Assembly (NCBI GenBank): GCA_964016885.1
Contig: OZ024748.1
Coordinates: forward strand, 26,536,001 to 26,600,000
DNA: 64,000 nt
Origin: Eledone cirrhosa
Taxonomy: Eukaryota
Direction: 5' to 3'
Shown: piece by piece, positions 1-49,170 of the stretch
Numbering within the stretch: the stretch's first letter is position 1
Layout of the letters: each line of letters begins with the position of its first letter
Program-made: the position numbers and the translations under genes
Notes under the pieces: model-generated
Database searches by the model: none
The model's input: the letters and a program-made list of their open reading frames with translations, nothing else
Told to the model about the DNA's origin: nothing

Positions 1-3000
1 AACTGAAACAACAGTTGTTTCTTCTACTGAACAAACCTCTATAACACCTACAGATGAACTCACTAGTATTGAATATACTACTGAGACAGCAACTGAAAAA
101 CCACTACCTATCAAGAGACCTACAAGCACAGCAGAAAAGATCACTGAAACTAGAACAGACACAACAGCAACAACATCACAGCTTCCTTCAACAAGTGAAA
201 TCCATATAGAAACTCCTAAATCTACTTCTGAACTGCCTCATACAACTGACATTGAAACAAGTACAGTGGAAAGAACAACACAAATTACAGATATTGAAAC
301 TGAGCGCTCAACTCGGACAGAAATTACATCACAACTAACAAGTTCTCCTGAAGAAACAACTCTGTCTACTCAGGTAGAGGACATTGAAAAGGTGACACCA
401 ACACCAGTTGCTAGCACAAAGCATACATCACCTGAAACAACAGTAGTTTCATCTCCTGAACACACCTCTATAACACCTACAGATGAACTCACTCGTATTG
501 AATATACTATTGAGACATCAACTAAAAAATCACTACCTATGACAACACCTACCAGCACAGCAGAAAAGATCACTGAAACTATTACAGACACAACAGCAAC
601 AACACCACAGCTTTCTCCAACAAGCGAAATCCATATAGAAACTCCAAAATCTACTTCTCAACTTCCTTATACAACTGACATTGAAACAAGTACAGTGGGA
701 AGAACAACACAAATTACAGATATTGAAACTGAGCGCACAACTGAGACAGAACGTACACCACAACTAACAACATCTCCTGAAGAAACAACTCTGTCTACTG
801 AGGTGGAGGACATCGAAAAGGTGACACCAACACAAGTTGCTAGCACAATGCATACATCACCTAAAACAACAGTTGTTTCATCTACTGAACACACCTCTCT
901 AACATCATCTACAGAGGAACTCACTAGTATAAAATATACTCCTGAGACATCAACTGAAAAGTCACTACCTATCAAGACACCTACAAGCACAGCAGAAAAG
1001 ATCACTGAAACTATAACAGACACAACAGCAACAACATCACAGCTTCCTTCAACAAGTGAAATCCATATAGAAACTCCTAAATCTACTTCTGAACTTCCTT
1101 ATACAACTGACATTGAAACAAGTACAGTGGAAAGAACAACACAAATTACAGATATTGAAACTGAGCACACAACTCAGACAGAAATTACACCACAACTAAC
1201 AACATCTCCTGAAGAAACAACACTGTCTACTCAGGTAGAGGACATCGAAAAGGTGACACCAACACAAGTTGCTAACACAATACATACATCCCCTGAAACA
1301 ACAGTTGTTTCATCTCCTGAACACACCTCTATAACACCTACAGATGAACTTACTAGTATTGAATATACAACTGAGACATCAACTAAAAAACCACTACCTA
1401 TCAAGACACCTACAAGCACAGCTGAAATGATCACTGAAACTATTACAGACACAACAGCAACAACATCACAGCTTCCTTCAACAAGTGAAATCCATATAGA
1501 AACTCCAAAATCTACTTCTCAAATTCCTTATACAACTGACATTGAAACAAGGACAGTGGAAAGAACAACACAAATTACAGATATTGAAACTGAGCACACA
1601 ACTCAGACAGAAATTACACCACAACTAACAACATCTCCTGAAGAAACAACACTGTCTACACAGGTACAGGACATCGAAAAGGTGACACAAACACAAGTTG
1701 CTACCACAAAGCATACGTCACCTGAAATAACAGTAGTTTCATCTCCAGAACACACCTCTATAACACCTACAGATGAACTTACTATTATTGAATATAAAAC
1801 TGAGACATCAACTGAAAAACCACTACCTATCAAGACAGCTACAAGCACAGCAGAAAAGATCACTGAAACTAGAACAGACACAACAGCAACAACATTACAG
1901 CTTCCTTCAACAAGTGAAATCCATATAGAAACTCCTAAATCTACTTCTGAACTGCCTCATATAAGTGACATTGAAACAAGTACAGTGGAAAGAACAACAC
2001 AAATTACAGATATTGAAACTGAGCGCACAACTCACACAGAAATTACACCACAAATAACAACATCTCCTGAAGAAACAACACTGTCTACTCAGATAGAGGA
2101 CATCGAAAAGGTGACACCAACACCAGTTGCTAGCACAAAGCATACATCACCTGAAAGAACAGTTGTTTCATCTCCTGTACAAACCTCTATAACACCTACA
2201 GATGAGCTTACTATTATTGAATATACAACTGAGACATCAACTGAAAAACCACTACCTATGACAACACCTTCAAGCACAGCAGAAAAGATCACTGAAACTA
2301 TTACAGACACAACAGCAACAACATCACAGCTTCCTTCAACAAGTGAAATCCATATAGAAACTCCAAAATCTACTTCTCAGCTTCCTTATACAACTGACAT
2401 TGAAACAAGTACAGTGGAAAGAACAACACAAATTACAGATATTGAAACTGAACGCACAACTCGGACAGAGATTACATCACAACTAACAACATCTCCTGAA
2501 GAAACGACTCTGTCTACTCAGGTAGAGGACATCGAAAAGGTGACAGCAACACAAGTTGCTAGCACAATGCATACATCACCTGAAACAACAGTTGTTTCAT
2601 CTACTGAACACACCTCTCTAACACCATCTACAGAGGAACTCACTAGTATAAAATATACTCCTGAGACATCAACTGAAAAATCACTACCCATGACAACACC
2701 TACAAGCACAGCTGAAAAGATTACTGAAACTAGGACAAACACAACAGCAACAACATCACAGCTTCCTTCAACAAGTGAAATCCATATAGAAACTCCTAAA
2801 TCTACTTCTGAACTGCCTCATATAACTGACATTGAAACAAGTACAGTGGAAAGAACAACACAAATTACAGATATTGAAACTGAGCGCACAACGCAGACAG
2901 AAATTACACCACAACTAACAACATCTCCTGAAGAAACAACACTGTCTACACAGGTACAGGACTTCGAAAAGGTGACACAAACACAAGTTGCTACCACAAA

Positions 3001-6000
3001 GCATACGTCACCTGAAATAACAGTAGTTTCATCTCCTGAACAAACCTCTATAACACCTACAGATGAACTTACTAGTATTGAATATACAACTGAGACATCA
3101 ACTGAAAAACCACTACCTATCAAGACACCTACAAGCACAGCAGAAAAGATCACTGAAACTACAACAGACACAACAGCAACAACATCACAGCTTCCTTCAA
3201 CAAGTGAAATTCATATAGAAACTCCAAAATCTACTTCTCAACTTCCTTATACAACTGACATTGAAACAAGTACAGTGGAAAGAACAACACTAATTACAGA
3301 TATTGAAACTGAGCGCACAACTCAGACAGAAATTACACCACAACAAACAACATCTCCTGAAGAAACAACTCTGTCTACTCAGGTAGAGGACATCGAAAAG
3401 GTGACACCAACACAAGTTGCTAGCACAATGCATACATCACCTGAAACAACAGTTGTTTCATCTACTAAACACACCTCTCTAACACCATCTACAGAGGAAC
3501 TCACTAGTATAAAATATACTCCTGAGACATCAACTGAAAAATCACTACCCATGACAACACCTACAAGCACAGCTGAAAAGATCACTGAAACTATTACAGA
3601 CACAACAGCAACAACATCACAGCTTCCTTCAACAAGTGAAATCCATATAGAAACTCCAAAATCTACTTCTCAACTTCCTTATACAACTGACATTGAAACA
3701 AGTACAGTGGAAAGAACAACACAAATTACAGATATTGAAACTGAGCGCACAACTCAACCACAACTAACATCTCCTGAAGAAACAACTCTTTCTACTGAGG
3801 TAGAGGACATCGAAAAGGTGACACCAACGCCAATTGCTAGCACAAAGCATACATCACCTGAAACAACAGTAGTTTCATCTCCTGAACAAACCTCTATAAC
3901 ACCTACAGATGAACTTACTAGTATTGAATATACAACTGAGACATCAACTGAAAAACCACTAGCTACGACAACACCTACAAGCACAGCAGAAAAGATCACT
4001 GAAACTATTACAGACACAACAGCAACAACATCACAGCTTCCTTCAACAAGTGAAATCCATATAGAAACTCCAAAATCTACTTCTCAACTTCCTTATACAA
4101 CTGACATTGAAACAAGTACAGTGGAAAGAACAACACAGATTACAGATATTGAAACTGAGCGCACAACTCAGACAGAAATTACACCACAACTAACAACATC
4201 TCCTGAAGAAAGAACTCTTTCTACTGAGGTAGAGGACATCGAAAAGGTGACACCAACGCCAATTGCTAGCACAAAGCATACATCACCTGAAACAACAGTA
4301 GTTTCATCTCCTGAACAAACCTCTATAACACCTACAGATGAACTTACTAGTATTGAATATACAACTGAGACATCAACTGAAAAACCACTACCTATCAAGA
4401 CACCTACAAGCACAGCAGAAAAGATCACTGAAACTACAACAGACACAACAGCAACAACATCACAGCTTCCTTCAACAAGTGAAATCCATATAGAAACTCC
4501 TAAATCTACTTCTGAACTGCCTCATATAAGTGACATTGAAACAAGTACAGTGGAAAGAACAACACAAATTACAGATATTGAAACTGAGCGCACAACTCAC
4601 ACAGAAATTACACCACAACTAACAACATCTCCTGAAGAAACAACATTGTCTACTCAGATAGAGGACATCGAAAAGGTGACACCAACACCAGTTGCTAGCA
4701 CAAAGCATACATCACCTGAAAGAACAGTTGTTTCATCTCCTGTACAAACCTCTATAACACCTACAGGTGAACTCACTAGAATAGAATATACATCAGAGAC
4801 ATCAACTGAAAAATCACTACCTATGACAACACCTTCAAGCACAGCAGAAAAGATCACTGAAACTATTACAGACACAACAGCAACAACATCACAGCTTCCT
4901 TCAACAAGTGAAATCCATATAGAAACTCCAAAATCTACTTCTCAACTTCCTTATACATCTGACATTGAAACAAGTACAGTGGAAAGAACAACACAAATTA
5001 CAGATATTGAAACTGAACGCACAACTCAGACAGAAATTACATCACAACTAACAACATCTCCTGAAGAAACGACTCTGTCTACTCAGGTAGAGGACATCGA
5101 AAAGGTGACACCAACACAAGTTGCTAGCACAATGCATACATCACCTGAAACAACAGTTGTTTCATCTACTGAACACACCTCTCTAACACCATCTACAGAG
5201 GAACTCACTAGTATAAAATATACTCCTGAGACATCAACTGAAAAATCACTACCCATGACAACACCTACAAGCACAGCTGAAAAGATCACTGAAACTAGGA
5301 CAAACACAACAGCAACAACATCACAGCTTCCTTCAACAAGTGAAATCCATATAGAAACTCCTAAATCTACTTCTGAACTGCCTCATATAACTGACATTGA
5401 AACAAGTACAGTGGAAAGAACAACACAAATTACAGATATTGAAACTGAGCGCACAACTCAACCACAACTAACATCTCCTGAAGAAACAACTCTTTCTACT
5501 GAGGTAGAGGACATCGAAAAGGTGACACCAACGCCAATTGCTAGCACAAAGCATACATCACCTGAAACAACAGTAGTTTCATCTCCTGAACAAACCTCTA
5601 TAACACCTACAGATGAACTCACTAGAATAGAATATACATCAGAGACATCAACTGAAAAATCACTACCTATGACAACACCTTCAAGCACAGCAGAAAAGAT
5701 CACTGAAACTATTACAGACACAACAGCAACAACATCACAGCTTCCTTCAACAAGTGAAATCCATATAGAAACTCCAAAATCTACTTCTCAACTTCCTTAT
5801 ACAACTGACATTGAAACAAGGACAGTGGAAAGAACAACACAAATTACAGATATTGAAACTGAGCACACAACTCAGACAGAAATTACACCACAACTAACAA
5901 CATCTCCTGAAGAAACAACACTGTCTACACAGGTACAGGACTTCGAAAAGGTGACACAAACACAAGTTGCTACCACAAAGCATACGTCACCTGAAATAAC

Positions 6001-9000
6001 AGTAGTTTCATCTCCTGAACAAACCTCTATAACACCTACAGATGAACTTACTAGTATTGAATATACAACTGAGACATCAACTGAAAAACCACTACCTATC
6101 AAGACACCTACAAGCACAGCAGAAAAGATCACTGAAACTACAACAGACACAACAGCAACAACATCACAGCTTCCTTCAACAAGTGAAATTCATATAGAAA
6201 CTCCAAAATCTACTTCTCAACTTCCTTATACAACTGACATTGAAACAAGTACAGTGGAAAGAACAACACTAATTACAGATATTGAAACTGAGCGCACAAC
6301 TCAGACAGAAATTACACCACAACAAACAACATCTCCTGAAGAAACAACTCTGTCTACTCAGGTAGAGGACATCGAAAAGGTGACACCAACACAAGTTGCT
6401 AGCACAATGCATACATCACCTGAAACAACAGTTGTTTCATTTACTAAACACACCTCTCTAACACTATCTACAGAGGAACTCACTAGTATAAAATATACTC
6501 CTGAGACATCAACTGAAAAATCACTACCCATGACAACACCTACAAGCACAGCTGAAAAGATCACTGAAACTATTACAGACACAACAGCAACAACATCACA
6601 GCTTCCTTCAACAAGTGAAATCCATATAGAAACTCCAAAATCTACTTCTCAACTTCCTTATACAACTGACATTGAAACAAGTACAGTGGAAAGAACAACA
6701 CAAATTACAGATATTGAAACTGAGCGCACAACTCAACCACAACTAACATCTCCTGAAGAAACAACTCTTTCTACTGAGGTAGAGGACATCGAAAAGGTGA
6801 CACCAACGCCAATTGCTAGCACAAAGCATACATCACCTGAAACAACAGTAGTTTCATCTCCTGAACAAACCTCTATAACACCTACAGATGAACTTACTAG
6901 TATTGAATATACAACTGAGACATCAACTGAAAAACCACTAGCTACGACAACACCTACAAGCACAGCAGAAAAGATCACTGAAACTATTACAGACACAACA
7001 GCAACAACATCACAGCTTCCTTCAACAAGTGAAATCCATATAGAAACTCCAAAATCTACTTCTCAACTTCCTTATACAACTGACATTGAAACAAGTACAG
7101 TGGAAAGAACAACACAGATTACATATATTGAAACTGAGCGCACAACTCAGACAGAAATTACACCACAACTAACAACATCTCCTGAAGAAAGAACTCTTTC
7201 TACTGAGGTAGAGGACATCGAAAAGGTGACACCAACGCCAATTGCTAGCACAAAGCATACATCACCTGAAACAACAGTAGTTTCATCTCCTGAACAAACC
7301 TCTATAACACCTACAGATGAACTTACTAGTATTGAATATACAACTGAGACATCAACTGAAAAACCACTACCTATCAAGACACCTACAAGCACAGCAGAAA
7401 AGATCACTGAAACTACAACAGACACAACAGCAACAACATCACAGCTTCCTTCAACAAGTGAAATTCATATAGAAACTCCTAAATCTACTTCTGAACTGCC
7501 TCATATAACTGACATTGAAACAAGTACAGTGGAAAGAACAACACAAATTACAGATATTGAAACTGAGCGCACAACTCAGACAGAACTTACACCACAACAA
7601 ACAACATCTCCTGAAGAAAAAACTCTGTCTACTCAGGTAGAGGACATCGAAAAGGTGACACCAACGCCAATTGCTAGCACAAAGCATACATCACCTGAAA
7701 CAACAGTAGTTTCATCTCCTGAACAAACCTCTATAACACCTACAGATGAACTTACTAGTATTGAATATACAACTGAGACATCAACTGAAAAACCACTACC
7801 TATAAAGACACCTACAAGCACAGCAGAAAAGATCACTGAAACTATTACAGACACAACAGCAACAACATCACAGCTTCCTTCAACAAGTGAAATCCATATA
7901 GAAACTCCAAAATCTACTTCTCAACTTCCTTATACAACTGACATTGAAACAAGTACAGTGGAAAGAACAACACAGATTACAGATATTGAAACTGAGCGCA
8001 CAACTCAGACAGAAATTACACCACAACTAACAACATCTCCTGAAGAAACAACTCTGTCTACTCAGGTAGAGGACATCGAAAAGGTGACACCAACGCCAAT
8101 TGCTAGCACAAAGCATACATCACCTGAAACAACAGTAGTTTCATCTCCTGAACAAACCTCTATAACACCTACAGATGAGCTTACTATTATTGAATATACA
8201 ACTGAGACATCAACTGAAAAACCACTACCTTTCAAGACACCTACAAGCACAGCAGAAAAGATCACTGAAACTACAACAGACACAACAGCAACAACATCAC
8301 AGCTTCCTTCAACAAGTGAAATTCATATAGAAACTCCTAAATCTACTTCTGAACTGCCTCATACAACTGACATTGAAACAAGTACAGTGGAAAGAACAAC
8401 ACAAATTACAGATATTGAAACTGAGCGCACAACTCAGACAGAAATTACATCACAACTAACAACATCTCCTGAAGAAACAACTCTGTCTACTCAGGTAGAG
8501 GACATCGAAAAGGTGACACCAACACAAGTTGCTAGCACAATGCATACATCACCTGAAACAACAGTTCTTTCATCTCCAGAACACACCTCTATAACACCTA
8601 CAGATGAACTTACTAGTATTGAATATAAAACTGAGACATCAACTGAAAAACCACTACCTATGACAACACCTACAAGCACAGCTGAAAAGATCACTGAAAC
8701 TATTACAGACACACCAGCAACAACATCACAGTTTCCTTCAACAAGTGAAATCCATATAGAAACTCCTAAATCTACTTCTGAACTGCCTCATATAACTGAC
8801 ATTGAAACAAGTACAGTGGAAAGAACAACACAAATTACAGATATTGAAACTGAGCGCACAACTCAACCACAACTAACATCTCCTGAAGAAACAACTCTTT
8901 CTACTGAGGTAGAGGACATCGAAAAGGTGACACCAACGCCAATTGCTAGCACAAAGCATACATCACCTGAAACAACAGTAGTTTCATCTCCTGAACAAAC

Positions 9001-12000
9001 CTCTATAACACCTACAGATGAACTTACAAGTATTGAATATACAACTGAGACATCAACTGAAAAACCACTACCTATCAAGACACCTACAAGCACAGCAGAA
9101 AAGATCACTGAAACTATTACAGACACAACAGCAACAACATCACAGCTTCCTTCAACAAGTGAAATCCATATAGAAACTCCAAAATCTACTTCTCAACTTC
9201 CTTATACAACTGACATTGAAATAAGTACAGTGAAAAGAACAACACAAATTACAGATATTGAAACTGAACGCACAACTGAGATAGAACTTACACCACAACA
9301 AACAACATCTCCTGAAGAAACAACTCTTTCTACTGAGGTAGAGGACATTGAAAAGGTGACACCAACGCCAATTGCTAGCACAAAGCATACATCACCTGAA
9401 ACAACAGTAGTTTCATCTCCTGAACAAACCTCTATAACACCTACAGATGAACTTACTAGTATTGAATATACAACTGAGACATCAACTGAAAAACCACTAC
9501 CTATCAAGACACCTACAAGCACAGCAGAAAAGATCACTGAAACTATTACAGACACAACAGCAACAACATCACAGCTTCCTTCAACAAGTGAAATCCATAT
9601 AGAAACTCCAAAATCTACTTCTCAACTTCCTTATACAACTGACATTGAAACAAGTACAGTGGAAAGAACAACACAAATTACAGATATTGAAACTCAGCGC
9701 ACAACTGAGACAGAACTTACACCACAACTAACAACATCTCCTGAAGAAACAACTCTGTCTACTCAGGTAGAGGACATCGAAAAGGTGACACCAACACAAG
9801 TTGCTAGCACAATGCATACATCACCTGAAACAACAGTTGTTTCATCTACTGAACACACCTCTCTAACACCATCTACAGAGGAACTCACTAGTATGAAATA
9901 TACTCCTGAGACATCAACTGAAAAATCACTACCCATGACAACACCTACAAGCACAGCTGAAAAGATCACTGAAACTATTACAGACACAACAGCAACAACA
10001 TCACAGCTTCCTTCAACAAGTGAAATCCATATAGAAACTCCTAAATCTACTTCTGAACTGCCTCATATAAGTGACATTGAAACAAGTACAGTGGAAAGAA
10101 CAACACAAATTACAGATATTGAAACTGAGCGCACAACTCACACAGAAATTACACCACAACTAACAACATCTCCTGAAGAAACAACATTGTCTACTCAGAT
10201 AGAGGACATCGAAAAGGTGACACCAACACCAGTTGCTAGCACAAAGCATACATCACCTGAAAGAACAGTTGTTTCATCTCCTGTACAAACCTCTATAACA
10301 CCTACAGGTGAACTCACTAGAATAGAATATACATCAGAGACATCAACTGAAAAATCACTACCCATGACAACACCTACAAGCACAGCTGAAAAGATCACTG
10401 AAACTAGGACAAACACAACAGCAACAACATCACGGCTTCCTTCAACAAGTGAAATCCATATAGAAACTCCTAAATCTACTTCTGAACTGCCTCATATAAC
10501 TGACATTGAAACAAGTACAGTGGAAAGAACAACACAAATTACAGATATTGAAACTGAGCGCACAACTCAACCACAACTAACATCTCCTGAAGAAACAACT
10601 CTTTCTACTGAAGTAGAGGACATCGAAAAGGTGACACCAACACAAGTTGCTAGCACAATGCATACATCACCTGAAACAACAGTAGTTTCATCTCCTGAAC
10701 AAACCTCTATAACACCTACAGATGAACTTACTAGTATTGAATATACAACTGAGACATCAACTGAAAAACCACTACCTATGACAACACCTACAAGCACAGC
10801 AGAAAAGATCACTGAAACTATTACAGACACAACAGCAACAACATCACAGCTTCCTTCAACAAGTGAAATCCATATAGAAACTCCAAAATCTACTTCTCAA
10901 CTTCCTTATACAACTGACATTGAAACAAGTACAGTGGAAAGAACAACACAGATTACAGATATTGAAACTGAGCGCACAACTCAGACAGAAATTACACCAC
11001 AACTAACAACATCTCCTGAAGAAACAACTCTGTCTACTGAGGTAGAGGACATCGAAAAGGTGACACCAACGCCAATTGCTAGCACAAAGCATACATCACC
11101 TGAAACAACAGTAGTTTCATCTCCTGAACAAACCTCTATAACACCTACAGATGAACTTACTAGTATTGAATATACAACTGAGACATCAACTGAAAAACCA
11201 CTACCTATCAAGACACCTACAAGCACAGCAGAAAAGATCACTGAAACTACAACAGACACAACAGCAACAACATCACAGCTTTCTTCAACAAGTGAAATTC
11301 ATATAGAAACTCCTAAATCTACTTCTGAACTGCCTCATATAACTGACATTGAAACAAGTACAGTGGAAAGAACAACACAAATTACAGATATTGAAACTGA
11401 GCGCACAACTCAGACAGAACTTACACCACAACAAACAACATCTCCTGAAGAAACAACTCTGTCTACTCAGGTAGAGGCCATCGAAAAGGTGACACCAACA
11501 CAAGTTGCTAGCACAATGCATACATCACCTGAAACAACAGTTGTTTCATCTACTGAACACACCTCTCTAACACCATCTACAGAGGAACTCACTAGTATAA
11601 AATATACTCCTGAGACATCAACTGAAAAATCACTACCCATGACAACACCTACAAGCATAGCTGAAAAGATCACTGAAACTATTACAGACACAACAGCAAC
11701 AACATCACAGCTTCCTTCAACAAGTGAAATCCATATAGAAACTCCTAAATCTACTTCTGAACTGCCTCATATAAGTGACATTGAAACAAGTACAGTGGAA
11801 AGAACAACACAAATTACAGATATTGAAACTGAGCGCACAACTCACACAGAAATTACACCACAACTAACAACATCTCCTGAAGAAACAACATTGTCTACTC
11901 AGATAGAGGACATCGAAAAGGTGACACCAACACCAGTTGCTAGCACAAAGCATACATCACCTGAAAGAACAGTTGTTTCATCTCCTGTACAAACCTCTAT

Positions 12001-15000
12001 AACACCTACAGGTGAACTCACTAGAATAGAATATACATCAGAGACATCAACTGAAAAATCACTACCTATGACAACACCTTCAAGCACAGCAGAAAAGATC
12101 ACTGAAACTATTACAGACACAACAGCAACAACATCACAGCTTCCTTCAACAAGTGAAATCCATATAGAAACTCCAAAATCTACTTCTCAACTTCCTTATA
12201 CAACTGACATTGAAACAAGTACAGTGGAAAGAACAACACAAATTACAGATATTGAAACTGAACGCACAACTCAGACAGAAATTACATCACAACTAACAAC
12301 ATCTCCTGAAGAAACGACTCTGTCTACTCAGGTAGAGGACATCGAAAAGGTGACACCAACACAAGTTGCTAGCACAATGCATACATCACCTGAAACAACA
12401 GTTGTTTCATCTACTGAACACACCTCTCTAACACCATCTACAGAGGAACTCACTAGTATAAAATATACTCCTGAGACATCAACTGAAAAATCACTACCCA
12501 TGACAACACCTACAAGCACAGCTGAAAAGATCACTGAAACTAGGACAAACACAACAGCAACAACATCACAGCTTCCTTCAACAAGTGAAATCCATATAGA
12601 AACTCCTAAATCTACTTCTGAACTGCCTCATATAACTGACATTGAAACAAGTACAGTGGAAAGAACAACACAAATGACAGATATTGAAACTGAGCGCACA
12701 ACTCAGACAGAAATTACACCACAACTAACAACATCTCCTGAAGAAACAACTCTGTCTACTCAGGTAGAGGACATCGAAAAGGTGACACCAAAACAAGTTG
12801 CTAGCACAATGGTTACATCACCTGAAACAACAGTTGTTTCATCTCCTGAACACACCTCTATAACACCATCTACACACGAACTTACTAGTATTGAATATAC
12901 AACTGAGACATCAACTGAAAAACCACTACCTATCAAGACACCTACAAGCACAGCAGAAAAGATCACTGAAACTACAACAGACACAACAGCAACAACATCA
13001 CAGCTTCCTTCAACAAGTGAAATCCATATAGAAACTCCTAAATCTACTTCTGAACTGCCTCATATAACTGACATTGAAACAAGTACAGTGGAAAGAACAA
13101 CACAAATTACAGATATTGAAACTGAGCGCACAACTCAGACAGAACTTACACCACAACAAACAACATCTCCTGAAGAAACAACTCTGTCTACTCAGGTAGA
13201 GGACATCGAAAAGGTGACACCAACGCCAATTGCTAGCACAAAGCATACATCACCTGAAACAACAGTAGTTTCATCTCCTGAACAAACCTCTATAACACCT
13301 ACAGATGAACTTACTAGTATTGAATATACAACTGAGACATCAACTGAAAAACCACTACCTATCAAGACACCTACAAGCACAGCAGAAAAGATCACTGAAA
13401 CTATTACAGACACAACAGCAACAACATCACAGCTTCCTTCAACAAGTGAAATCCATATAGAAACTCCAAAATCTACTTCTCAACTTCCTTATACAACTGA
13501 CATTGAAACAAGTACAGTGGAAAGAACAACACAAATTACAGATATTGAAACTGAGCGCACAACTCAGACAGAAATTACACCACAACTAACAACATCTCCT
13601 GAAGAAACAACTCTGTTTACTCAGGTAGAGGACATCGAAAAGGTGACACCAACACAAGTTGCTAGCACTATGCATACATCACCTGAAACAACAGTTGTTT
13701 CATCTACTGAACACACCTCTCTAACACCATCTACAGAGGAACTCACTAGTATAAAATATACTCCTGAGACATCAACTGAAAAATCACTACCCATGACAAC
13801 ACCTACAAGCACAGCTGAAAAGATCACTGAAACTAGGACAGACACAACAGCAACAACATCACAGCTTCCTTCAACAAGTGAAATCCATATAGAAACTCCT
13901 AAATCTACTTCTCAACTTCCTTATACAACTGACATTGAAACAAGTACAGTGGAAAGAACAACACAAATTACAGATATTGAAACTGAGCACACAACTCAGA
14001 CAGAAATTACACCACAACTAACATCTGAAGAAACAACACTGTCTACACAGGTAGAGGACATCGAAAAGGTGACACCAAAACAAGTTGCTAGCACAATGGT
14101 TACATCACCTGAAACAACAGTTGTTTCATCTCCTGAACACACCTCTATAACACCATCTACACACGAACTTACTAGTATTGAATATACAACTGAGACATTA
14201 ACTGAAAAACCACTACCTATCAAGACACCTACAAGCACAGCTGAAAAGATCACTGAAACTATTACAGACACAACAGCAACAACATCACAGTTTCCTTCAA
14301 CAAGTGAAATCCATATAGAAACTCCTAAATCTACTTCTGAACTGCCTCATATAACTGACATTGAAACAAGTGCAGTGGAAAGAACAACACAAATTACAGA
14401 TATTGAAACTGAACGCACAACTGAGACAGAACTTACACCACAACAAACAACATCTCCTGGAGAAACAACTCTGTCTACTGAGGTAGAGGACATCGAAAAG
14501 GTGACACCAACGCCAATTGCTAGCACAAAGCATACATCACCTGAAACAACAGTAGTTTCATCTCCTGAACAAACCTCTATAACACCTACAGATGAACTTA
14601 CTAGTATTGAATATACAACTGAGACATCAACTGAAAAACCACTACCTATCAAGACACCTACAAGCACAGCAGAAAAGATCACTGAAACTACAACAGACAC
14701 AACAGCAACAACATCACAGCTTCCTTCAACAAGTGAAATTCATATAGAACCTCCTAAATCTACTTCTGAACTGCCTCATATAACTGACATTGAAACAAGT
14801 ACAGTGGAAAGAACAACACAAATTACAGATATTGAAACTGAGCGCACAACTCAGACAGAACTTACACCACAACAAACAACATCTCCTGAAGAAACAACTC
14901 TTTCTACTCAGATAGAGGACATCGAAAAGGTGACACCAACACCAGTTGCTAGCACAAAGCATACATCACCTGAAAGAACAGTTGTTTCATCTCCTGTACA

Positions 15001-16560
15001 AACCTCTATAACACCTACAGATGAACTCACTAGAATAGAATATACATCAGAGACATCAACTGAAAAATCACGACCTATGACAACACCTTCAAGCACAGCA
15101 GAAAAGATCACTGAAACTATTACAGACACAACAGCAACAACATCACAGCTTACTTCAACAAGTGAAATCCATATAGAAACTCCAAAATCTACTTCTCAAC
15201 TTCCTTATACAACTGACATTGAAACAAGTACAGTGGAAAGAACAACACAAATTACAGATATTGAAACTGAACGCACAACTCAGACAGAAATTACATCACA
15301 ACTAACAACATCTCCTGAAGAGACAACTCTGTCTACTCAGGTAGAGGACATCGAAAAGGTGACACCAACACAAGTTGCTAGCACAATGCATACATCACCT
15401 GAAACAACAGTTGTTTCATCTACTGAACACACCTCTCTAACACCATCTACAGAGGAACTCACTAGTATAAAATATACTCCTGAGACATCAACTGAAAAAT
15501 CACTACCCATGACAACACCTACAAGCACAGCTGAAAAGATCACTGAAACTAGGACAGACACAACAGCAACAACATCACAGCTTCCTTCAACAAGTGAAAT
15601 CCATATAGAAACTCCTAAATCTACTTCTGAACTGCCTCATACAACTGACATTGAAACAAGTACAGTGGAAAGAACAACACAAATTACAGATATTGAAACT
15701 GAACGCACAACTGAGACAGAAATTACACCACAACAAACAACATCTCCTGAAGAAACAACACTGTCTACTCAGGTAGAGGACATCGAAAAGGTGACACCAA
15801 CGCCAATTGCTAGCACAAAGCATACATCACCTGAAACAACAGTTGTTTCATCTCCTGAACACACCTCTATAACACCATCTACACACGAACTTACTAGTAT
15901 TGAATATACAACTGAGACATCAACTGAAAAACCACTACCTATCAAGACACCTACAAGCACAGCTGAAAAGATCACTGAAACTATAACAGACACAACAGCA
16001 ACAACATCACAGCTGCCTTCAACAAGTGAAATCCATATAGAAACTCATAAATCTACTTCTGAACTGCCTCATATAACAGACATTGAAACAAGTACAGTGG
16101 AAAGAACAACACAAATTACAGATATTGAAACTGAGCGCACAACTCAGACAGAAATTACACCACAACTAACAACATCTCCTGAAGAAACAACAATGTCTAC
16201 TCAGGTAGAGGACATCGAAAAGGTGACACCAACGCCAATTGCTAGCACAAAGCATACATCACCTGAAACAACAGTTGTTTCATCTCCAGAACAAACCTCT
16301 ATAACACCTACAGATGAACTTACTAGTATTGAATATACAACTGAGACATCAACTGAAAAACCACTACCTATAACGACACCTACAAGCACAGCTGAAAAGA
16401 TCACTGAAACTATAACAGACACAACAGCAACAACATCACAGCTTCCTTCAACAAGTGAAATCCATATAGACACTCCTAAATCTACTTCTGAACTGCCTCA
16501 TATAACTGACATTGAAACAAGTACAGTGGAAAGAACAACACCAATTACAGATATTAAAAC
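1..16560 (+). repeat. Coding tandem array, ~38.5 units of 429 bp (variants 432, 426, 414 bp)
   Basis: The motif ...TSEIHIETPKSTS...TDIETSTVERTTQITDIETERTT... recurs. Unit spacing read from equivalent positions (591, 1023, 1452, 1881 ... 15993, 16422) is 429/432/414/426 bp. Confidence 0.98.
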
Positions 16561-17705
16561 CAAACCCACAAGTCAGAGAGAAATTACAGCATCAATAATT
16601 GCTACTTCCAATCAAACTTCTTTTTCACCAGAAATAGTATCTACCGAACAAATCTCTTCATCTACTTACGTGACGGACATACACACTTTGAACACAACAC
16701 ATCCTTTTTCTACAATTTTGTCATCTTCATTTAATCCTAGTAGCATTCTGAATGACAGCAACTTAATACATTCAACTGTTTCACCCACTCAAAGAAAATT
16801 ACCCCATTTATTATCTACTGCAACCTTTTCCCAAAATCTCTCTTCTTCACCTACGAATGCTTCCATTTCTACTTTGAGTTCATTGATTTCTAAATTTTAT
16901 AGGTCTTCTTTCTCAACTTCTCTTGTTACAACGCCATTAAAATATTCAACTTCACCTGTATTTTCTGAGCCTCATTTCATTACAATTAATGAAACAGATA
17001 TATCTGAGACAATAAATTCAACTGTACCATTTTACTCTTCAACTATTACCCAGAATTACTCAGGTTTTCCAAAAACTCTAGAAGGAAAACCACCGACTAT
17101 CTTAACTGTGATAACAAGAAAAGTGAAACAACCTGAATTTTCTCTAAAATCAACTTTAAATCCGTCTCAACAAAGTTCAACACTGTCAGTTTTGAAAACA
17201 CTTTATCCTTTGACTTCTATCAAAAGTACTAATGCATCTGAAAGGTATATTACTAAAGAGCCAACTGATGGTGTTGTGGTAAGTAATACAACTGAAATGA
17301 AACAAAAGTCTTACACAATGATAACAGCTGAGACCAGTGCAAAAGCCATCAAACCCTTACCAGTCACAAAGTTAGTCAATGCAACAGAATTCATTGAAAA
17401 GATACATAGCACTCCTCATAGCCTTCTTCAGACAAAACCAAATATAAGTAGTACATTGTTGGTTATTTCAAGAAGTATCAAACAGCATTCTTCAACACCA
17501 ATAAAAATACATTCAACTGAAAAAACTGTTTTGCCTTCCATTATATCCCCAGAGAAAATTAGTCCCTCAAGTCCAAATACGTCTGTGATCATAATATCTC
17601 GGAGAATTAAACCAGTTACTTCAATAATCCCTCCAACAATAACATCAACAACCATGAATATATCTACAAGTGTACAAAATATTACAGTTTTACCATCAAA
17701 GAAAG
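2..17705 (+). CDS. Giant internal coding exon (5'-truncated by the window) of a mucin-like PTS/Glu-rich tandem-repeat protein
   Basis: The frame is open from base 2 (ACT GAA ACA ACA GTT...); the ORF-track start at 266 is only a GTG inside a repeat. There is no stop in ~5900 codons, and all repeat length variants are multiples of 3. It ends at a strong donor AAG|GTAAGA (17705/17706), phase 1. Confidence 0.9.
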
Positions 17706-17791
17706 GTAAGACAACGAATTGTTAATTATCACAAGGAAAAGTTTAAGATCTATTTTCAATGCTTGTATGGGTTAGACGGGTTGTCACATTA

Positions 17792-18054
17792 TAAATAATA
17801 ATAATAATAATAAAATTATTGTGTAAAGTGCTCAGGTGCACTACAACTCATCAAAGGTGCATGTATAGTACATAGAATAATATTCAAATATACATGTGTG
17901 TATGTGTATGGAGGGGGAATATTAGGTGTAGTGTTGGCGAATCTCAGGAAGCATGGAAGTTTTTAAAGGATGCAGTATTTCAACAGCTAATAACTGATGC
18001 AGGTAGTTTGTTCCATGCTTCAGCAACTCTGAGCATGAAAAAATGTTTCCGAAA
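17792..18054 (-). mobile_element. CR1-clade LINE 3' fragment nested inside a SINE tail
   Basis: The minus strand translates to FRKHFFMLRVAEAWNKLPASVIS..ASFK, the typical CR1 ORF2 C-terminus, followed by a (TTA)n tail. The flanks (17743-17791, 18055-18190) join into one SINE family B tail. Confidence 0.75.
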
Positions 18055-18220
18055 TGAGACAAGTCAGGTCAGCTGACTATGTCTTTCTCATATGGAACTG
18101 TATTTGGTTTGGTTTCTGTGGCTGGATGCCTTTCCTAATCCCAAACATATTACAGTGTGGCGAAGGTGCCTTTTTATCGTGGCACCAGCTCGATAATAAT
18201 TATCATTATTTATAATCAGA

Positions 18221-18440
18221 GGCAGTGGATTGGCAGTATTGGTAAAGGGTCAGACGCCATGCTTTGCAGCATAGGGTTATGGCCCTTTATGATCTGAGTT
18301 CAAATCCTGCCGAGATAAACTTTGCCTTTCATCCTTACGGGGGTCGATAAAATAAAGTACCAGTCACGCACTGGGGTCGATTTAATCGACTTTCCCCTCC
18401 CCCAAAGTTGCTGGCCTTGTGCCTATATAAGAAATGATTA
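18221..18440 (+). mobile_element. tRNA-derived SINE family A (long form)
   Basis: A-box-like TGGCAGTATTGG, B-box GAGTTCAAATCC, and body CTTTGCCTTTCATCCTTACGGGGGTCGATAAAATAAAGTACCAGT shared by more than 12 copies in the window. Confidence 0.9.
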
Positions 18441-18944
18441 TTTATCATCATGTTTTCAACAGTTTTCTGCAGGCTTTTTTAATGTGTTGCCAGGTACACA
18501 TCTTCCGAGGTGCGAGTGTCAGATACACACAATGTTGTATTTCAAAAATATAGATTGTCTTCATATACTACACTAGTTGAGCTTTAAAGTGTGGTTTGGT
18601 TTGTTGTTTTGGATTATATTCTAGTGTTTTGCAATATTTTGTTGGATTCTATTCAGGGTTTGTTATATGTTGCATGATCGATTTTATAGCATTCGTTGTG
18701 TAGGGCTACCTTAGGTTTCAAGGCACTGGTGTGGCAGCAACTGCTGACTGCATACAGTGTTACAGAATACATGAAGCAGCTGTGCAATACATAGTTAATA
18801 TCGGAAGTTGCACGTAGAAAGCCCCCCCCCCCCACACACACACACACACCAAAAAAATGTGTCGGCCTATTTTCTAAGGGAGGCAACTCTTGTTTAATCA
18901 CAGTTAGTTGTGATCATGCATGTGTTTCTATGACTGGTGGTGTT

Positions 18945-19281
18945 CATCATCATTTCATTTTACATCCACTTTTTCCCTGCTTGCAAGGGTGGGACGGGAA
19001 CTGATTCTGGCCTGATTTCTACAGCTGGATGCCCTTCCTAACACCAACCTCATTTACAGTGAGTGCTGGGTGCTTTTTTGCCGTGGCACCTACACAACCA
19101 CTTTGCAGTGGAATGATATGGACCCCAGTCCCTATCATCTCATTTGTACAGCTGAGTAAACTGGAGCAATGTGAAATAAAGTGTCTTGCTCAAGGAAACA
19201 ACATATCACCCGGTCTGAGAATTAAACTCACAACCTTTCGATTGCAAGGCTAATACACTAATCACTAAGCCATGTGCCTCC
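18945..19281 (-). mobile_element. tRNA-derived CORE-like SINE family B, near full length
   Basis: On the minus strand: tRNA-like head GGAGGCACATGGCTTAGTG, CORE-like TCCTTGAGCAAGACACTT, then GGTTGGTGTTAGGAAGGGCATCCAGC and a (GAT)n tail. The same tail recurs at ~28469-28720, 33505-33750, 53975-54345, 55225-55610 and 60380-60660. Confidence 0.75.
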
Positions 19282-19817
19282 ATTAATAATTCAAATCAGT
19301 CAATAGTGTGTGGTGTATGCTTTGGAAAACTGTGACATACTTAGATGTAAACAAGTTTTTTATAAATTATCAGAATGCTCTGGAAATTTTCTTCTCTCAG
19401 TATTAAAACTTCTTTTTTATTGTAGTATTTTTCTGTAACATATATCCATGCTTAGAACAACAACAATTGATTTTACAATAACATTTTTGTCATTGCTAGT
19501 GACTTTTTTTTACTGAACTATTATTAGCTTATGGTTGTGAGTGTATTTGGCTATTCTAGTACCTCAGCTTCACTATCACCTGCAATATTACCATGATTGT
19601 TGGGGATTGCCTCAAAATGTTTTAGGGAGCAATACCAGCATTCTTTATCGTAGTGTGTAATTAGGGATGGGTGTGTGTTTTTTCTTTCTCTTTCTGATTC
19701 ATTTTTATTGATTTGTTTCTTTTGTTATATTCATTATAATTTGTGTTTTTCAATAAAATAGATAATATATTTTTTTATTGATTTTCTATAATATTTCTAT
19801 CTTTTATACTTTTTCAG

Positions 19818-20398
19818 GCTCAATCATTTTTGGATTTGATCTACTATCATTGGGGACACGCCGAGCTACATATATTCACAAATTTATCAATGCCTTCATA
19901 CCATATTCTGGTTACAGTCATTATAGTGTTGTTTCATGGAGTAAAAGACCCTTACATGCAAATTTTCCATTATCCAAACATGATTCTGATCGCAAAAATC
20001 CACACATACCTGACTTGGCAGATATAGTGGAAAAAATTAGACATGACCTATTTCCCTCTCCTTTAAAAGAAAAACATCGTTTGGCTTATGGAGATATAGC
20101 ACCAGTTGTTGTTTTGTTTGTCGACCCCATTGAGACAAAACTTACTCTACAGTTAATCAATGAAGTGGAACAACTGAAAGAATCTGGTGCAAGAGTATTT
20201 ATACTAAATATTGGAGTCAGCAAATGGCCAAGACCAGGAACTCTAAAATTACTTAGCAGTAAACCAAGTCATTTAAACATTGCTCACGCTCCATCATATT
20301 TGCAACTTCTAAACAGGGTTTTGAACACTCCTTACCAGTTTCGATTGTTAGCTAATAATTACCAACCTATTACAGTCAAAAACACCAATGCATATTAA
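19818..20398 (+). CDS. Terminal exon encoding a divergent von Willebrand factor type A (VWA)-like domain
   Basis: The motifs follow VWA order: IIFGFD (beta1), YSVVSWS (beta2), LADIVEKIRHDLF (helix), VVVLFVD (beta4), VEQLKESGARVFILNIG (helix-beta5), LKLLSSKPSHLNIAHAPSYLQL. Stop TAA at 20396-20398. Confidence 0.8.
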
Positions 20399-20493
20399 AA
20401 AAAAATCTTTAAAAACACCTAAACTCTAATATTTAGCTAATAGTCAGATATCAAACATGAAATAGCATTGGTAATTCAATGTTGCAATTATAT

Positions 20494-20499
20494 AATAAA
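20494..20499 (+). promoter_or_regulatory. Candidate polyadenylation signal AATAAA
   Basis: First AATAAA ~100 nt after the stop codon; a second lies at 20576-20581. The region is AT-rich, so a chance match is possible. Confidence 0.4.
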
Positions 20500-20769
20500 G
20501 AATAACCTTTAAGAAAGAACTAGATAAAACATAGGAATATCGATATAGTAGTGGAATAGTTAGGTACTGCAGCTAAATAAACAGGCTATGAGATAACTTA
20601 TTTGTAGATGAAAAACAAAACAAGAAAAACAGTGAATAACCAACAGGTGTTATATGATTATTATTTATACAATTTAAAGTATGGGTTTTACTAATTATAA
20701 AGAAAAAACATCTGACTAATTCCTGCTACTAAAAAATACAATGACAAATATTTTATTATTTACCTCTAT

Positions 20770-20984
20770 GAGGTGGATTGGCCAAATCATTAACTGGTCA
20801 GACAAAATACTTAACAGTATTTAGGTGTAGCTCATTATGTTCTGTGTTCAAATCCTGCTGAGGTCAACTTTGCCTTTTATCCTTCTGAGGTCAATAAAAT
20901 AAAGTGTCAGTCAAATACTGGGGTTGATGGAATCAACTTTCCCCCTTTCCTCTAAAATTGCTTACCTTGTGACTAAATTAGAAA
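20770..20984 (+). mobile_element. SINE family A, diverged copy
   Basis: GGTGGATTGG...GTTCAAATCCTGCTGAGGTCAACTTTGCCTTTTATCC matches family A. Confidence 0.8.
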
Positions 20985-21990
20985 CCATAGTTAACTTCTA
21001 TTAGCATATTGTTTAAACTTCTTTTATGGTGAGCAACTCAAATGTTGATGTTATTAATTTTTTCTTTATGGTAACGGAATATTTGAAATGAGAGATATGT
21101 CTCTCCTTTTAATATTTTGTTTTGAAAAATAATTTTAAAAAAAGCAAGTATAAAAAAATTAGATATCAAATAGATAAGGTGGATTTCTTAAATGTGTTTT
21201 CTATACTGTTACAAATAAAATAAGTATTTAAAATTAGATATAAAACCCTCCAAAAACATAGTATTTAAAATTAGATACAGTATTTTTTTTTTTTTTAATT
21301 AAAAAAAATATATATTTTTCCATTAATCAATATATCTGAAAGAGCATTTATGAATTGTTCGTTTTTCTACACATGCCCACCCAACACTCATATTTACAAA
21401 CATTTGAAGTTATTTAGTTGAATCATATAAAGAGTAAAGCAATTAGAAAAACAACTAATTGGTGATGGATATTAGAGGCTCTGCAAGGAGAATGATGTTA
21501 CTCTACATTTTAGGTTCACGTGAGAGCAGGTTGATATAACATTTCATTACCTCCTTCTCAACTTCAGCTTTACACACCTTAGTGTACCTCCAGTTCATGG
21601 AATCTATTTTATCACTGCAACCAATGTTATGTTTCCCCTCATTTTACTCAACCACTGAGTAAAACGTTTGATGCTTTGAGCAAAAATATTTTAAAATCCA
21701 AAGTTACTGTGCAGCAACATTTTTATCTGTGTTGCACCAATACAGCAGATGTGCAGCCCATGCACCAATGCAGCTTAGAGGGAACAATGACTGAGATTAA
21801 TTGCTATTGTCCAATTTCCACAACTAATTACAAAGGAAACAGAGTTAAAATCATTCTAAATACAAATTACAACCCATCAAATATCAGATCTGCCAACATT
21901 ATAAAAGATAATATTTTTTGCAAAGTTCAAAATTTCAAGTTGCTGAGGGGTTATGAAGTTCATAGAAAAATGTAGGACAGTCAAACACAG

Positions 21991-40135: not shown

Positions 40136-40544
40136 AAAGACAATAAATTTACTTTATATTTTTTTATTCAAACGTCTATGTTTTATTTTTTGTTTATTTG
40201 ATATAATAAATTCTTTTTATATCTGAACTTCATTTAAATATATAAAATTTAATTAGCGTAACTAATTTACTTATGTGATAGGGTCCTGGAAAGGCACCAT
40301 AAGCAATACTAACATGCTCCTTTAAGAATCAACAAATGTTGGTTTGCCCCCCTCACATTTTTAAGGCAAACGAGGCCCCTTACCAAAAAACCCGGGCCAC
40401 TCTACTAACCAGAAAGAAATAATACATAGAATCCTTTACCCACACCCACTGTCACTACCATGATTATCATATTCCCCTATAACAAACACTTAGCACAAGA
40501 AACACTACCTCAACAACTTGGAAGGCACCAAATAGTCACTCTAA

Positions 40545-41925
40545 GCCTCTACACCACCACCACCACCACCATCATTAACATCACCACTAAACCAACACCA
40601 CCACCACCACCACACCATCACCACTACACCAGCACCATCCCACTCCACCAGCACCACCACCACCAACACATCACTAACATCACCACTACACCAACACCAC
40701 CACCACTACACCAACACCACCACCACCACACCATCACCACTACACCAACACCACCACCCCACTCCACCAGCACCACCACCACATCACTAACACCACCACC
40801 ATCACTAACATCACCCCTAAACCAACACCACCACCACCACTCCTTCAGCACCACCCCACTCCACCAGCACCACCAACACAACATCACTAACATCACCACT
40901 ACACCAACACTACCACCACTCCACCACCACCACCACACCATCACTAACATCACCACTCCACCACCACCACCACTAACATTACCACTCCACCACCACCACC
41001 ACCACCACCACACCATCACTAACATCACCACAACACCAACACCACCACTACTTCAGCACCACCCCACTCCACCACCACCACCACCACCACCACACCTTCA
41101 CTAATATCACCACTACACCACCACCACCACCACCACTACTTCAGAACACCCCCCCACTCCACATCCACCACCACCATCACCACAACAACAAGGAGGTCAG
41201 CAAAACCTCACTGCAGGCCTCCAACAATCTAATACATTATATCGTTGAAAGGGTCAAGTTAGAAGGAGTGACTAGGGGGTTACTTGTGGCAACACTTCAT
41301 ACCATCACCAACACTACTACCACCACCACCAACACCACTATTATTACTACCATCACCACTACCACCAACACCATTACTACTACCATCACCATCACCAACA
41401 ACACTACTACTACTACCACCACCACCAACACCACTACTACTACTACTACTATCACCAACACCACTACTACCACCACCACCACCACCACCACTACTACTAC
41501 TACCACCATCACTATCTCCATAATCACCACCATCACTGTCACCACAACCACTACCATCAATATCACCACCGACACCCACCAACACCACCACCACTACTAT
41601 TACCACTACCATCACTATCATCACCACTACTACCACTACCACCAACAACACTACCACCATCATTATCACCACAACCACCACCACCATCACCACTGCCACT
41701 ACTACTACTACCACCACCACAACCACCACCGCCACTACTACTACTACCACCACCATCACTATCTCCACAACCACCACCACCACCACTAAACCCACCACTG
41801 CCACTATTCCCACCACTATCACCACCACCACCACCACTATCAGCACCACCACCACCACTAATCCCACCACTACCACCACCACCACCACTTCCACTACCAC
41901 CACTACTACCACTAATACTATTACT
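40545..41925 (+). repeat. Degenerate (CAC/ACC/ACT)n trinucleotide low-complexity tract
   Basis: It gives poly-H/T/P and poly-V/G/W ORFs in all frames. Similar tracts lie at ~31180-31360, 35915-36115 and 56515-56660. Confidence 0.92.
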
Positions 41926-42659
41926 ACTCTTTTATCTTATCATCTGTTTATTTCAGTATGGTGGTGGTGGTGGTGTTATTCCTTAGGGGGTTCTCTACTT
42001 ATGTTACCTTCTACTGGTCCTTGCTTCCTCCTCTGCCCCACTCTGCCAAAACAGGTTGTTGCTACCAAAGGTCACAGGAATTGCCATGTAGAAGGAAGAA
42101 CTCAAGGTCATAAACAAACCACTGAAGAGGTGGGGGGCTGGGGAGAAAAGGAGAAGATGGGATAGGGTGGTAGTGATGGTGTTGTGATGATGATGATGAT
42201 CATCATCATGGTGGTGGTAGTAGTGCTGATGATAGATTGTTAGAATCATGAGGGTGTTTACACTCCCAAATCCTAAGGGGATTTCATTACAACCCTTTAT
42301 GGCCTGAGTTCAAATCCCATACCCATAAAAACTCCATTTTGCTTCTCAGCCTTCTTGGGGTGAGATTTGGTCAAGTTTACATTCCTGTTAACACTTTCAT
42401 TACCATATTTCTAATGAAAGATACTGTCTATGTCATTAACCATTTCCTTAGCATATTTCAAATGAAAGACACTGTCTAAGGTGTTCATATAATGTTGAAA
42501 ATAATCAAGAATTTGGGATTATTAAGCTGTTGTTTACATAACAAATGTTCTTACATAAAATAAGGTTTTTAACCACCTTAAAATGAATACTTTGGTATCA
42601 TTGAATCAGAGGAGGTTTCAGGTAGTTTCGTATGAAAAGGGTTAATACTTTTGATACCA

Positions 42660-48445: not shown

Positions 48446-49170
48446 CAGGGTGTAACAGGTAAATTGGGACATGTTTCAAATGGGTATATTTCTGATTTTG
48501 TTGGAGTTTAAATTTTAAATATTACCAGAATCACTTATTCATAATTTGTTCAATCTGAAATAAAAAATAGTATGTTAATAAAGAATGAAACTGTAGAAGT
48601 GTAATTTCTAAATTATTTCACACCACCAAAAGTGCTGGGGAGATTGTTAGAGCCACAAAGTATGTTAAATCTACTGTTTTTAGAGTTGTAGCCAATTTGA
48701 AGAAAAGTCAGGATGTTCAGAGAAAGCCTCACAGTCCTCGCAGTGATCAAAAATGCACACCTCAAACGATTGATTCAGTTGAACCAATCAAAATCGATGA
48801 CGAAGTTAGCTCGCTCAAGATCAAGGAATCAGTAAAATGACCATTTCTAGGGCTGTGAGATAAGACCTCCATATGAAAGCATATGTGAAGAGACACTGTA
48901 ACAGCCTAACTACCTGCTCCAAAGCCATTCAAGCTGAAAGAAGTCCCAAACTTCTTAGTCATCTGAAATATTGAGGTGGAGACGTCCGCATCTTCGTGGA
49001 TGAAAAGAAGTTTGTTGTAGACGAAGTTGAAAACCATAAAAACTCACGAGTGATAGCGTACAACCCTTCCCAAGTTCCTTCAGCAATAATCTGGCAACCA
49101 TTATCGTTTTTGGAGCTGTTGCAAGTGATAGGAAATTGATGCCTCCTCATTTTAATGAAGCAGGTCTTAG
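48446..49170 (+). mobile_element. Tc1/mariner-superfamily transposon 5' remnant (maT/DD37D-like)
   Basis: CAGGGTGT terminus; IFVDEKKFVVDEVENHKNSRVIA, and after a frameshift VFGAVASDRKLMPPHFNEAGL. It is cut off by the satellite. Confidence 0.75.

Follow-up and report, generated by a model that had tools for sequence, protein, structure and literature searches.

A giant coding repeat array in a mucin-like member of a cephalopod VWA family

The question raised by this locus is where a reading frame that is already open at the first letters of the sequence begins, and whether it is transcribed and translated as one piece. The sequence is a 64,000-nucleotide (nt) stretch of the Eledone cirrhosa genome (assembly GCA_964016885.1, contig OZ024748.1, here C8, positions 26,536,001 to 26,600,000), hereafter the window, in which a position equals the C8 position minus 26,536,000. 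Its plus strand carries a stop-free frame at 2-17722, 5,907 codons rich in threonine (29.3%), glutamate (12.9%), serine (12.3%) and proline (8.2%). An analysis of the letters alone, the sequence-only reading, had described this frame as about 5900 residues of open, Pro/Thr/Ser (PTS)- and Glu-rich sequence spliced in phase to a terminal VWA-like domain, a description that is borne out; the in-frame opening reaches a further 282 kb 5' of the window, which thus holds only the final 6% of the gene. We conclude that the giant coding array at this locus is real and under selection, and that its gene is a mucin-like member of a cephalopod VWA family that has yet to be studied. It is probable that a VWA exon, the giant repeat exon and a degenerate VWA exon form one gene, likely with one mRNA, encoding a chain of about 100,000 residues. 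On balance, we also favour a transcript that includes the whole 299,571-nt exon and is translated throughout, which would make these the longest exon and polypeptide described, the latter a micrometre-scale secreted bottle-brush that would form mucus or matrix by virtue of its length and its two terminal VWA domains, with no disulfide polymerisation.

The giant exon and its reading frame

The continuous frame comprises 99,900 stop-free codons (C8:26,254,023-26,553,722), and a protein search of the genome gave the same open frame. The exon itself occupies C8:26,254,135-26,553,705 on the plus strand (299,571 nt or 99,857 codons, phase 1 at both ends), starting 281,865 nt upstream of the window, with its final 17,705 nt at window positions 1-17705. 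It has no stop in the coding frame, compared with 5,185 and 11,041 in the other two plus-strand frames, and its 5' part, taken separately, has none compared with 351 and 181. The exon is free of N, the sole N run in the 464 kb examined lying 31 kb upstream of it. Three portions, all read on the plus strand, can be distinguished. The first (C8:26,254,135-26,275,807) consists of short Thr-Gly-Pro repeats of the TTTGTTP type, about 7,200 residues, together with a unique spacer. The second, beginning at C8:26,275,808, is an array of about 637 units of 429 nt, each encoding 143 amino acids (aa) rich in T, E, S, I and P; mean pairwise identity between units is 95.9%, and the last 38.8 of them fill window positions 3-16588. 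The third is a unique S/T-rich end of about 370 aa (16589-17705), conserved in Octopus orthologue models and covered at a depth of 11.3 by a contig of sequencing run X1.

The boundaries of the exon are set by contigs of this run. One of 2,244 nt aligns to 16512-17703 and then to 19816-20867, with a gap of exactly 2,112 nt (the cut being shifted by a shared AG), which corresponds to a plus-strand, phase 1 intron at 17706-19817 (GTAAGA...TTTCAG) with donor AAAG|GTAAGA after 17705 and acceptor TTTTTCAG| before 19818; splicing here keeps the phase (G+GC = Gly) and leads into the terminal coding exon (19818-20398, plus strand), which encodes a degenerate VWA-fold domain and ends with TAA at 20396-20398; the splice and stop are those of the sequence-only reading, its count of about 194 residues becoming 193. 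A second X1 contig covers 20862-21500 in the 3' untranslated region, which extends at least over 20399-21500 (plus strand) and contains AATAAA at 20494, 20576, 20893 and 21214. At the other end, a 645-nt X1 contig (depth 4.9) joins C8:26,254,135, in frame and with GT-AG sites, to a 552-nt exon at C8:26,251,515-26,252,066 (plus strand, outside the window) that encodes a canonical VWA domain with a complete metal ion-dependent adhesion site (MIDAS); the intervening plus-strand intron measures 2,068 nt (GTGAGT...TATAG). The two VWA domains lie 304 kb apart, and no further VWA exon was found in the 464 kb around the locus. Contigs of the other three runs (X2-X4), which are DNA-like, extend into the 3' intron, whereas X1 depth is none or nearly none in three unique intron bins. 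Because its contigs skip introns at both ends, we infer that X1 is an RNA-derived run, and between its two joins lies a single exon of 299,571 nt.

The array carries a strong signature of constraint on its frame. Changes were scored as single-base departures from the commonest codon of each column in the 553 of 636 units that are exactly 429 nt long, the 83 units of other length being left out. None of the 44 possible stop-making changes is seen, compared with 547 of 1,234 non-stop changes and with 25.5 stops expected from the observed spectrum (P about 4e-18, assuming independent sites). The five other frames show stops at the expected rate (27 seen against 26.4 expected, 38/32.3, 15/21.6, 29/31.5 and 21/25.7). 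The deficit holds in each sixth of the array scored separately (0 stops against 10.5, 6.0, 6.7, 6.6, 4.2 and 13.6 expected) and among the 160 variants private to a single unit (0 against 7.7). All 636 unit spacings are divisible by three; the gaps, at 11 positions, measure 3 to 72 nt. These patterns indicate that the open frame is maintained by selection. Synonymous and non-synonymous changes are seen at equal rates (137 of 321 and 410 of 913), which suggests that the chain must be unbroken while the exact residues matter little, as in a mucin rod.

Seven double units of 870-879 nt (C8:26,378,840-26,492,057) are recombined at common internal breakpoints, which appear to be the trace of unequal crossing-over followed by re-copying. 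Just upstream of the window, a lone 1,647-nt unit (C8:26,534,117-26,535,763) carries a PTT-repeat insert, has diverged flanks and is possibly an older part of the giant exon. No AATAAA occurs in the A-rich, 277-kb array (C8:26,275,808-26,552,453), the exon's seven all sitting outside it, although the chance of this was not assessed.

Transcript, assembly and the competing explanations

A single full-length transcript and chain has to be weighed against a number of observations that count against it. X1 is one sample from one study, of unrecorded kind, and no read or contig spans the whole giant exon. The depth of X1 over the array ranges from 0 to 5 times that at the unique 3' end, compared with 200-1,100 times in the DNA runs, about 100-fold lower, so that X1 contains a few units' worth only. 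An exponential 3' decay of 4 kb does predict depths of 29, 17, 41 and 41 for four array contigs where 29, 18, 37 and 54 are seen, a fit with one free constant to four data points; an mRNA without most of the array would give an identical depth pattern, and under such decay the 5' junction contig requires a separate source. That contig is a short island that begins within the VWA exon and contains two A9 tracts, at which, as a guess, internal oligo-dT capture could have yielded it. A donor-like motif, AAG|GTAAC, repeats at unit spacing across the array. As for the protein, translation would take about 5.6 h at an assumed 5 aa/s; ribosome drop-off, at about 1e-5 to 1e-4 per codon, could prevent most chains from being completed; and the signal-peptide exon of the giant gene was not located upstream. 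Finally, near-identical runs account for 102 of the 636 units (44 kb) as second copies, which are possible assembly duplicates.

Much of this would be accommodated if the gene were real and its mRNAs shorter and mixed, through cryptic in-frame cuts within the array or early polyadenylation, so that no chain of 100,000 residues is made. We regard this as unlikely, though it is the alternative that deserves most weight. It would account for array RNA falling so far under the DNA while both junctions are covered in one run; the units being multiples of three, internal cuts of equal phase would preserve the frame, and even occasional inclusion of units would purge stops. Candidate signals are present in the donor-like motif throughout the array and in five AATAAA at C8:26,274,885-26,275,524. 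However, the unit motif is in phase 0 and its use would put the terminal exon out of frame, and no acceptor with a 10-pyrimidine tract exists anywhere in the 299.6-kb exon, the strand being A/C-rich. A transcript ending at the AATAAA cluster is disfavoured by the near-zero X1 depth in the T-rich part that follows the 5' contig. The array depths are fitted by simple 3' decay, and poly(A) libraries behaved alike for PKZILLA, losing transcript cover beyond about 10 kb (10.1101/2024.01.29.577497). The X1 junctions were judged among the matches listed, with which rare internal joins are compatible. An apparent hint of interior RNA, an X1 contig matching over its whole span at least 21 kb from the 3' end, was dropped, as all its 31-mers recur in the last 20 kb. 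Even with shorter mRNAs, a 277-kb coding array purged of stops, absent from public models, would be unusual.

It is improbable, in our judgement, that the assembler, through merged haplotypes or copied units, inflated a far shorter array. Near-identical unit runs do exist, twelve in all (the largest of 12.8 kb with 6 differences, others of 8.2 kb with 4 and 6.0 kb with 3), and whole-unit errors would preserve the frame. Against inflation, the longest exact repeat in the array is 5,333 nt, with none of at least 10 kb; 480 of the 636 units are distinct; divergence grows with the distance between units, from 15.6 to 22.7 differences per unit; and in near-identical runs of at least six units the offset is never above 51 units. 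Dropping all 44 kb of second copies leaves about 255 kb, or about 85,000 codons. Single contigs of the DNA runs reach about 100-390 times single-copy depth, against about 95-320 times predicted from the assembly for the commonest matching copies, a rough check in which contig spans are partly estimated. As these runs may derive from the assembled animal, they test the assembler and not the population; depths up to about 355-390 times single-copy nevertheless demand hundreds of copies whatever the assembler did. The length of the array is thus probably not an assembly product. In a protein search of the genome with the unit, all of the 150 candidates scored, out of 750, fell inside the giant-gene locus. 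Summed unitig depth was rejected as an estimate of array size, since a simulation gave 12 to 5,000 depending on the length cut-off.

Two further alternatives are very improbable each and, even taken jointly, hardly less so. Recent amplification of a stop-free unit can open long frames, and the interior is without direct RNA support, as would be expected of an untranslated satellite open by chance or lying in a decayed gene; this is already largely refuted by the absence of stops in every sixth and among private variants, stops occurring at the expected rate in the five other frames, and the VWA exons on either side are intact, spliced and conserved (79% and 76% to Octopus models for the terminal one, 86% for the first). 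Two transcripts, one that runs from the VWA exon into the early repeats and another that starts at a promoter within the array and reaches the terminal exon, would suit the X1 contigs, which are separate islands, and the public models, which carry just the 3' end or just the VWA; compact relatives, however, have both VWA domains in one protein, and as there is no stop between the two ends, the 5' transcript would be without a stop codon.

A single gene and chain thus remains our favoured reading, and its origin can be pictured as follows. A short PTS linker exon would have been enlarged 400- to 1,000-fold through unequal crossing-over of the 429-nt unit, a mode of growth suggested by the recurrence of recombined units, while selection purged stops and frameshifts as it grew. 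Splicing might proceed by recognition across the flanking introns, which at about 2.1 kb each would spare the exon from being defined end to end, the A/C-rich strand offering no pyrimidine-tract acceptor within it.

A rod between two unlike VWA domains

The three exons together predict 100,233 aa and 10.9 MDa before any glycans, 99.6% of the chain being encoded by the single exon; threonine and serine make up 42.4% and proline about 8%, and the chain is net acidic. The sequence-only reading had proposed a rod of more than 600 kDa, which was right in kind, a large PTS rod, and far too low in scale. It had also noted the lack of cysteine, transmembrane helix and glycosylphosphatidylinositol (GPI) signal in the visible spliced part, and this agrees with what we find: the sole cysteine of the window frame (17720) sits past the donor and hence outside the spliced product. 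Over the whole chain there are seven scattered cysteines, two of them in the first VWA exon and none in the terminal exon. The highest 19-residue Kyte-Doolittle value over the predicted chain is 1.31, with no transmembrane helix, and the final 60 residues peak at 0.49, with no GPI tail by hydropathy, the measure used in place of a dedicated predictor.

The first VWA exon matches Pfam PF00092 (E 4.1e-33), and its MIDAS residues (D13, S15, S17, T86/T88, D117) are invariant across 12 sequences. The terminal domain has no significant match in Pfam (VWA_CoxE only, E 0.32), and a profile match to the integrin alpha-E I domain (E 0.004). A structure model built from a 9-sequence alignment (mean predicted local distance difference test score, pLDDT, 76.9; a single-sequence fold at pLDDT 46 was discarded) matches 1n3y in Foldseek (E 2.5e-6, TM 0.62) and aligns structurally with a Z-score of 13.7 over 152 residues at a root mean square deviation of 3.4, the best fold matches being integrin I domains, collagen VI, VWF A domains and mussel PTMP1. 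The domain is therefore predicted to adopt the VWA α/β fold, as had been proposed. Its MIDAS is lost, DLLSL standing where DxSxS is expected and the middle Thr being absent. The notion of a C-terminal VWA cap accordingly survives as regards the fold and has to be enlarged, for a second, MIDAS-bearing VWA caps the N-terminal end.

The chain is likely O-glycosylated and likely secreted, the latter by analogy with its relatives: a hydrophobic leader (by hydropathy) stands at the start of six of eight two-VWA relatives, and the relatives carry nothing but a leader ahead of the first VWA. Secretion is argued from relatives because the leader exon of the giant gene was not found; the sequence-only reading had looked to upstream exons for a signal peptide, and neither tblastn with the relatives' leaders nor three scans for an ATG, a hydrophobic stretch and a donor gave a convincing exon up to 115 kb upstream, weak candidates being rejected. 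A 200-N assembly gap at C8:26,223,315, 28 kb upstream of the VWA exon, is surrounded by about 20 kb of AT-type microsatellite (C8:26,210,000-26,232,400), beyond which the leader exon may lie. Further upstream, open frames at C8:26,161,434-26,164,141 and 26,188,237-26,188,980 resemble DNA-transposon remnants, which we take to be hAT-like and Tc1/mariner-like, respectively.

A T/S-rich, acidic and hydrated bottle-brush of this kind could extend up to about 38 micrometres if fully stretched (0.38 nm per residue). It might gel through entanglement of chains, replacing the disulfide polymerisation of vertebrate gel mucins, and be anchored or cross-linked non-covalently by its N-terminal VWA, dependent on metal through the MIDAS, and its C-terminal VWA, without one.

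Relatives, known systems and scale

The design had been proposed to be that of a lineage-specific protein, a candidate for mucus, egg cement, sucker cuticle or matrix, and it is indeed coleoid, although not a one-off. Eleven matches to the terminal domain occur in the Eledone genome, each preceded on its own strand by one of the top 11 of 16 first-VWA matches. Besides the giant gene these are ten compact loci with domains 2.4-15.7 kb apart, seven of which have a PTS frame of 81-236 codons between the domains, in the same exon order as the giant gene. Seven VWA/degenerate-VWA pairs, one inverted, cluster on a second contig (C1:280,419,779-280,752,308), two lie on a third (C15, 8.09-8.12 Mb) and one on a 77-kb contig (C37). 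A PTS frame of at least 70 codons is absent between the domains at C1:280,735,579-280,752,308, C15:8,086,700-8,093,604 and C37:53,748-63,145 (C37 examined in part), where linkers may be short, split or not PTS-rich.

A profile search with the terminal domain returned 227 proteins at E <= 0.001. Of the 150 matches listed, 20 were identified by name; the top full-length ones are VWA-linker-degenerate-VWA proteins of 362-707 aa from Octopus and Argonauta (Sepia contributing a partial member); after them come, among others, two- and three-VWA proteins of bivalves and limpets. Members include O. bimaculoides LOC106871944 and LOC106868136, O. vulgaris CAI9721419.1, Argonauta GAB1598186.1 and the partial Sepia model CAE1158264.1, with 35-43% identity to the giant gene in the first VWA and 30-39% in the last. 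In a tree of 28 terminal domains, the cephalopod-type rows form one clade against the bivalve and limpet relatives (100/99), and the giant gene groups with two Octopus fragments and one further row (100/100). These orthologue fragments, O. bimaculoides LOC106879988 (XP_014785251.1) and O. vulgaris CAI9735081.1 ('Mucin-5AC-like'), share 79% and 76% identity, respectively, in the terminal domain and 50% over 631 aa of the PTS end. As models they differ from the giant gene in starting at a Met within the PTS region, without the first VWA, and their first 360 aa show no internal self-match; the first VWA is 86% identical to another public model. Public models are thus truncated to the 3' end alone (862 and 885 aa) or the VWA alone. 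The two-VWA design is a family trait and size is the novelty: the compact relatives have the same domain order in a chain about 200 times shorter.

Gel-forming mucins (MUC2, MUC5AC, MUC5B) and membrane mucins (MUC16, MUC4) likewise carry one very large PTS tandem-repeat exon. The gel-forming ones have a Cys-rich VWD/C8/TIL N-terminus and a C-terminal cystine knot, the membrane ones a transmembrane helix close to the C-terminus, often accompanied by SEA/EGF domains. Unlike these mucins, the giant gene, mapped upstream as far as the VWA exon, has that VWA and no VWD/C8/TIL before the PTS exon, no cystine knot in its Cys-free terminal exon, no transmembrane helix and no SEA domain, the orthologue models containing no Pfam families; the view that this is neither a gel-forming nor a membrane mucin is upheld. 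Pif and BMSP share an N-terminal VWA with it and, as shell matrix proteins, bear chitin-binding domains (PMC9635652), which are absent from the giant product, with its seven scattered cysteines. Mussel byssus PTMP1 also has two VWA domains and is among the top fold matches of the terminal domain (E 9.3e-6, Z 12.4); in it, as in molluscan 'cartilage matrix protein-like' proteins, the VWA domains are close together, whereas about 100,000 residues separate them here. The protein would be mucin-like in its working, yet it is, by the features tested, outside gel-forming mucins, membrane mucins and Pif/BMSP.

No earlier description of the gene or family was found in the literature covered, which included few subscription papers and parts of PMC9068888 and PMC9635652. 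Octopus skin-mucus studies list mucins and VWA proteins (PMC11431876; PMC10138644), and snail mucus contains VWA proteins (PMC10475054), with no tie to the giant gene in the parts available. Five plus four gene and family terms had no match in the available part of the PMC10138644 supplement, whose 'mucin-5AC' row is another gene. The outcomes that the sequence-only reading had named against itself (no spliced join, no VWA fold, a characterised orthologue of the same architecture) did not arise.

Human internal exons longer than 10 kb are nearly all in mucins, and none exceeds MUC16 exon 3, with more than 21,000 nt (PMC3467050); the giant exon is about 14 times as long. PKZILLA-1 has 45,212 aa from a 136,071-nt transcript of 17 exons (10.1101/2024.01.29.577497), the largest predicted bacterial protein, from Omnitrophota, has 85,804 aa (10.1101/2023.11.21.568195), and the spider glue AgSp1 is encoded by 42,270 nt in two exons (PMC6553539); no larger protein is named in the part of PMC11573180 available. 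These giants and titin are likewise single chains encoded by repetitive genes that annotation missed or split. If the favoured reading holds, the confirmed size limit, that of PKZILLA-1, would be more than doubled and the largest predicted protein exceeded. The gene would then make testable what exon length splicing tolerates, how processive ribosomes are over some 100,000 codons and by what means so long a chain gets through the endoplasmic reticulum and Golgi. It also suggests that mucins can be designed without cross-linking cysteines, here in a cephalopod family that has not been studied.

Elsewhere in the window, T- and H-rich frames at 40430-42162 were considered as part of the gene and rejected, as they reflect a CAC microsatellite behind the gene's stop codon; this CAC-rich microsatellite, at 40552-41912, opens T- and H-rich frames of 213-270 codons. 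A 20-nt unit is repeated in tandem at 49167-50382 (60.8 copies, 88% matches), and a 206-codon plus-strand frame at 62301-62918, with a PHD finger (E 6.6e-7) and a weak RVT_1 match (E 1e-4), is a LINE-type fragment.

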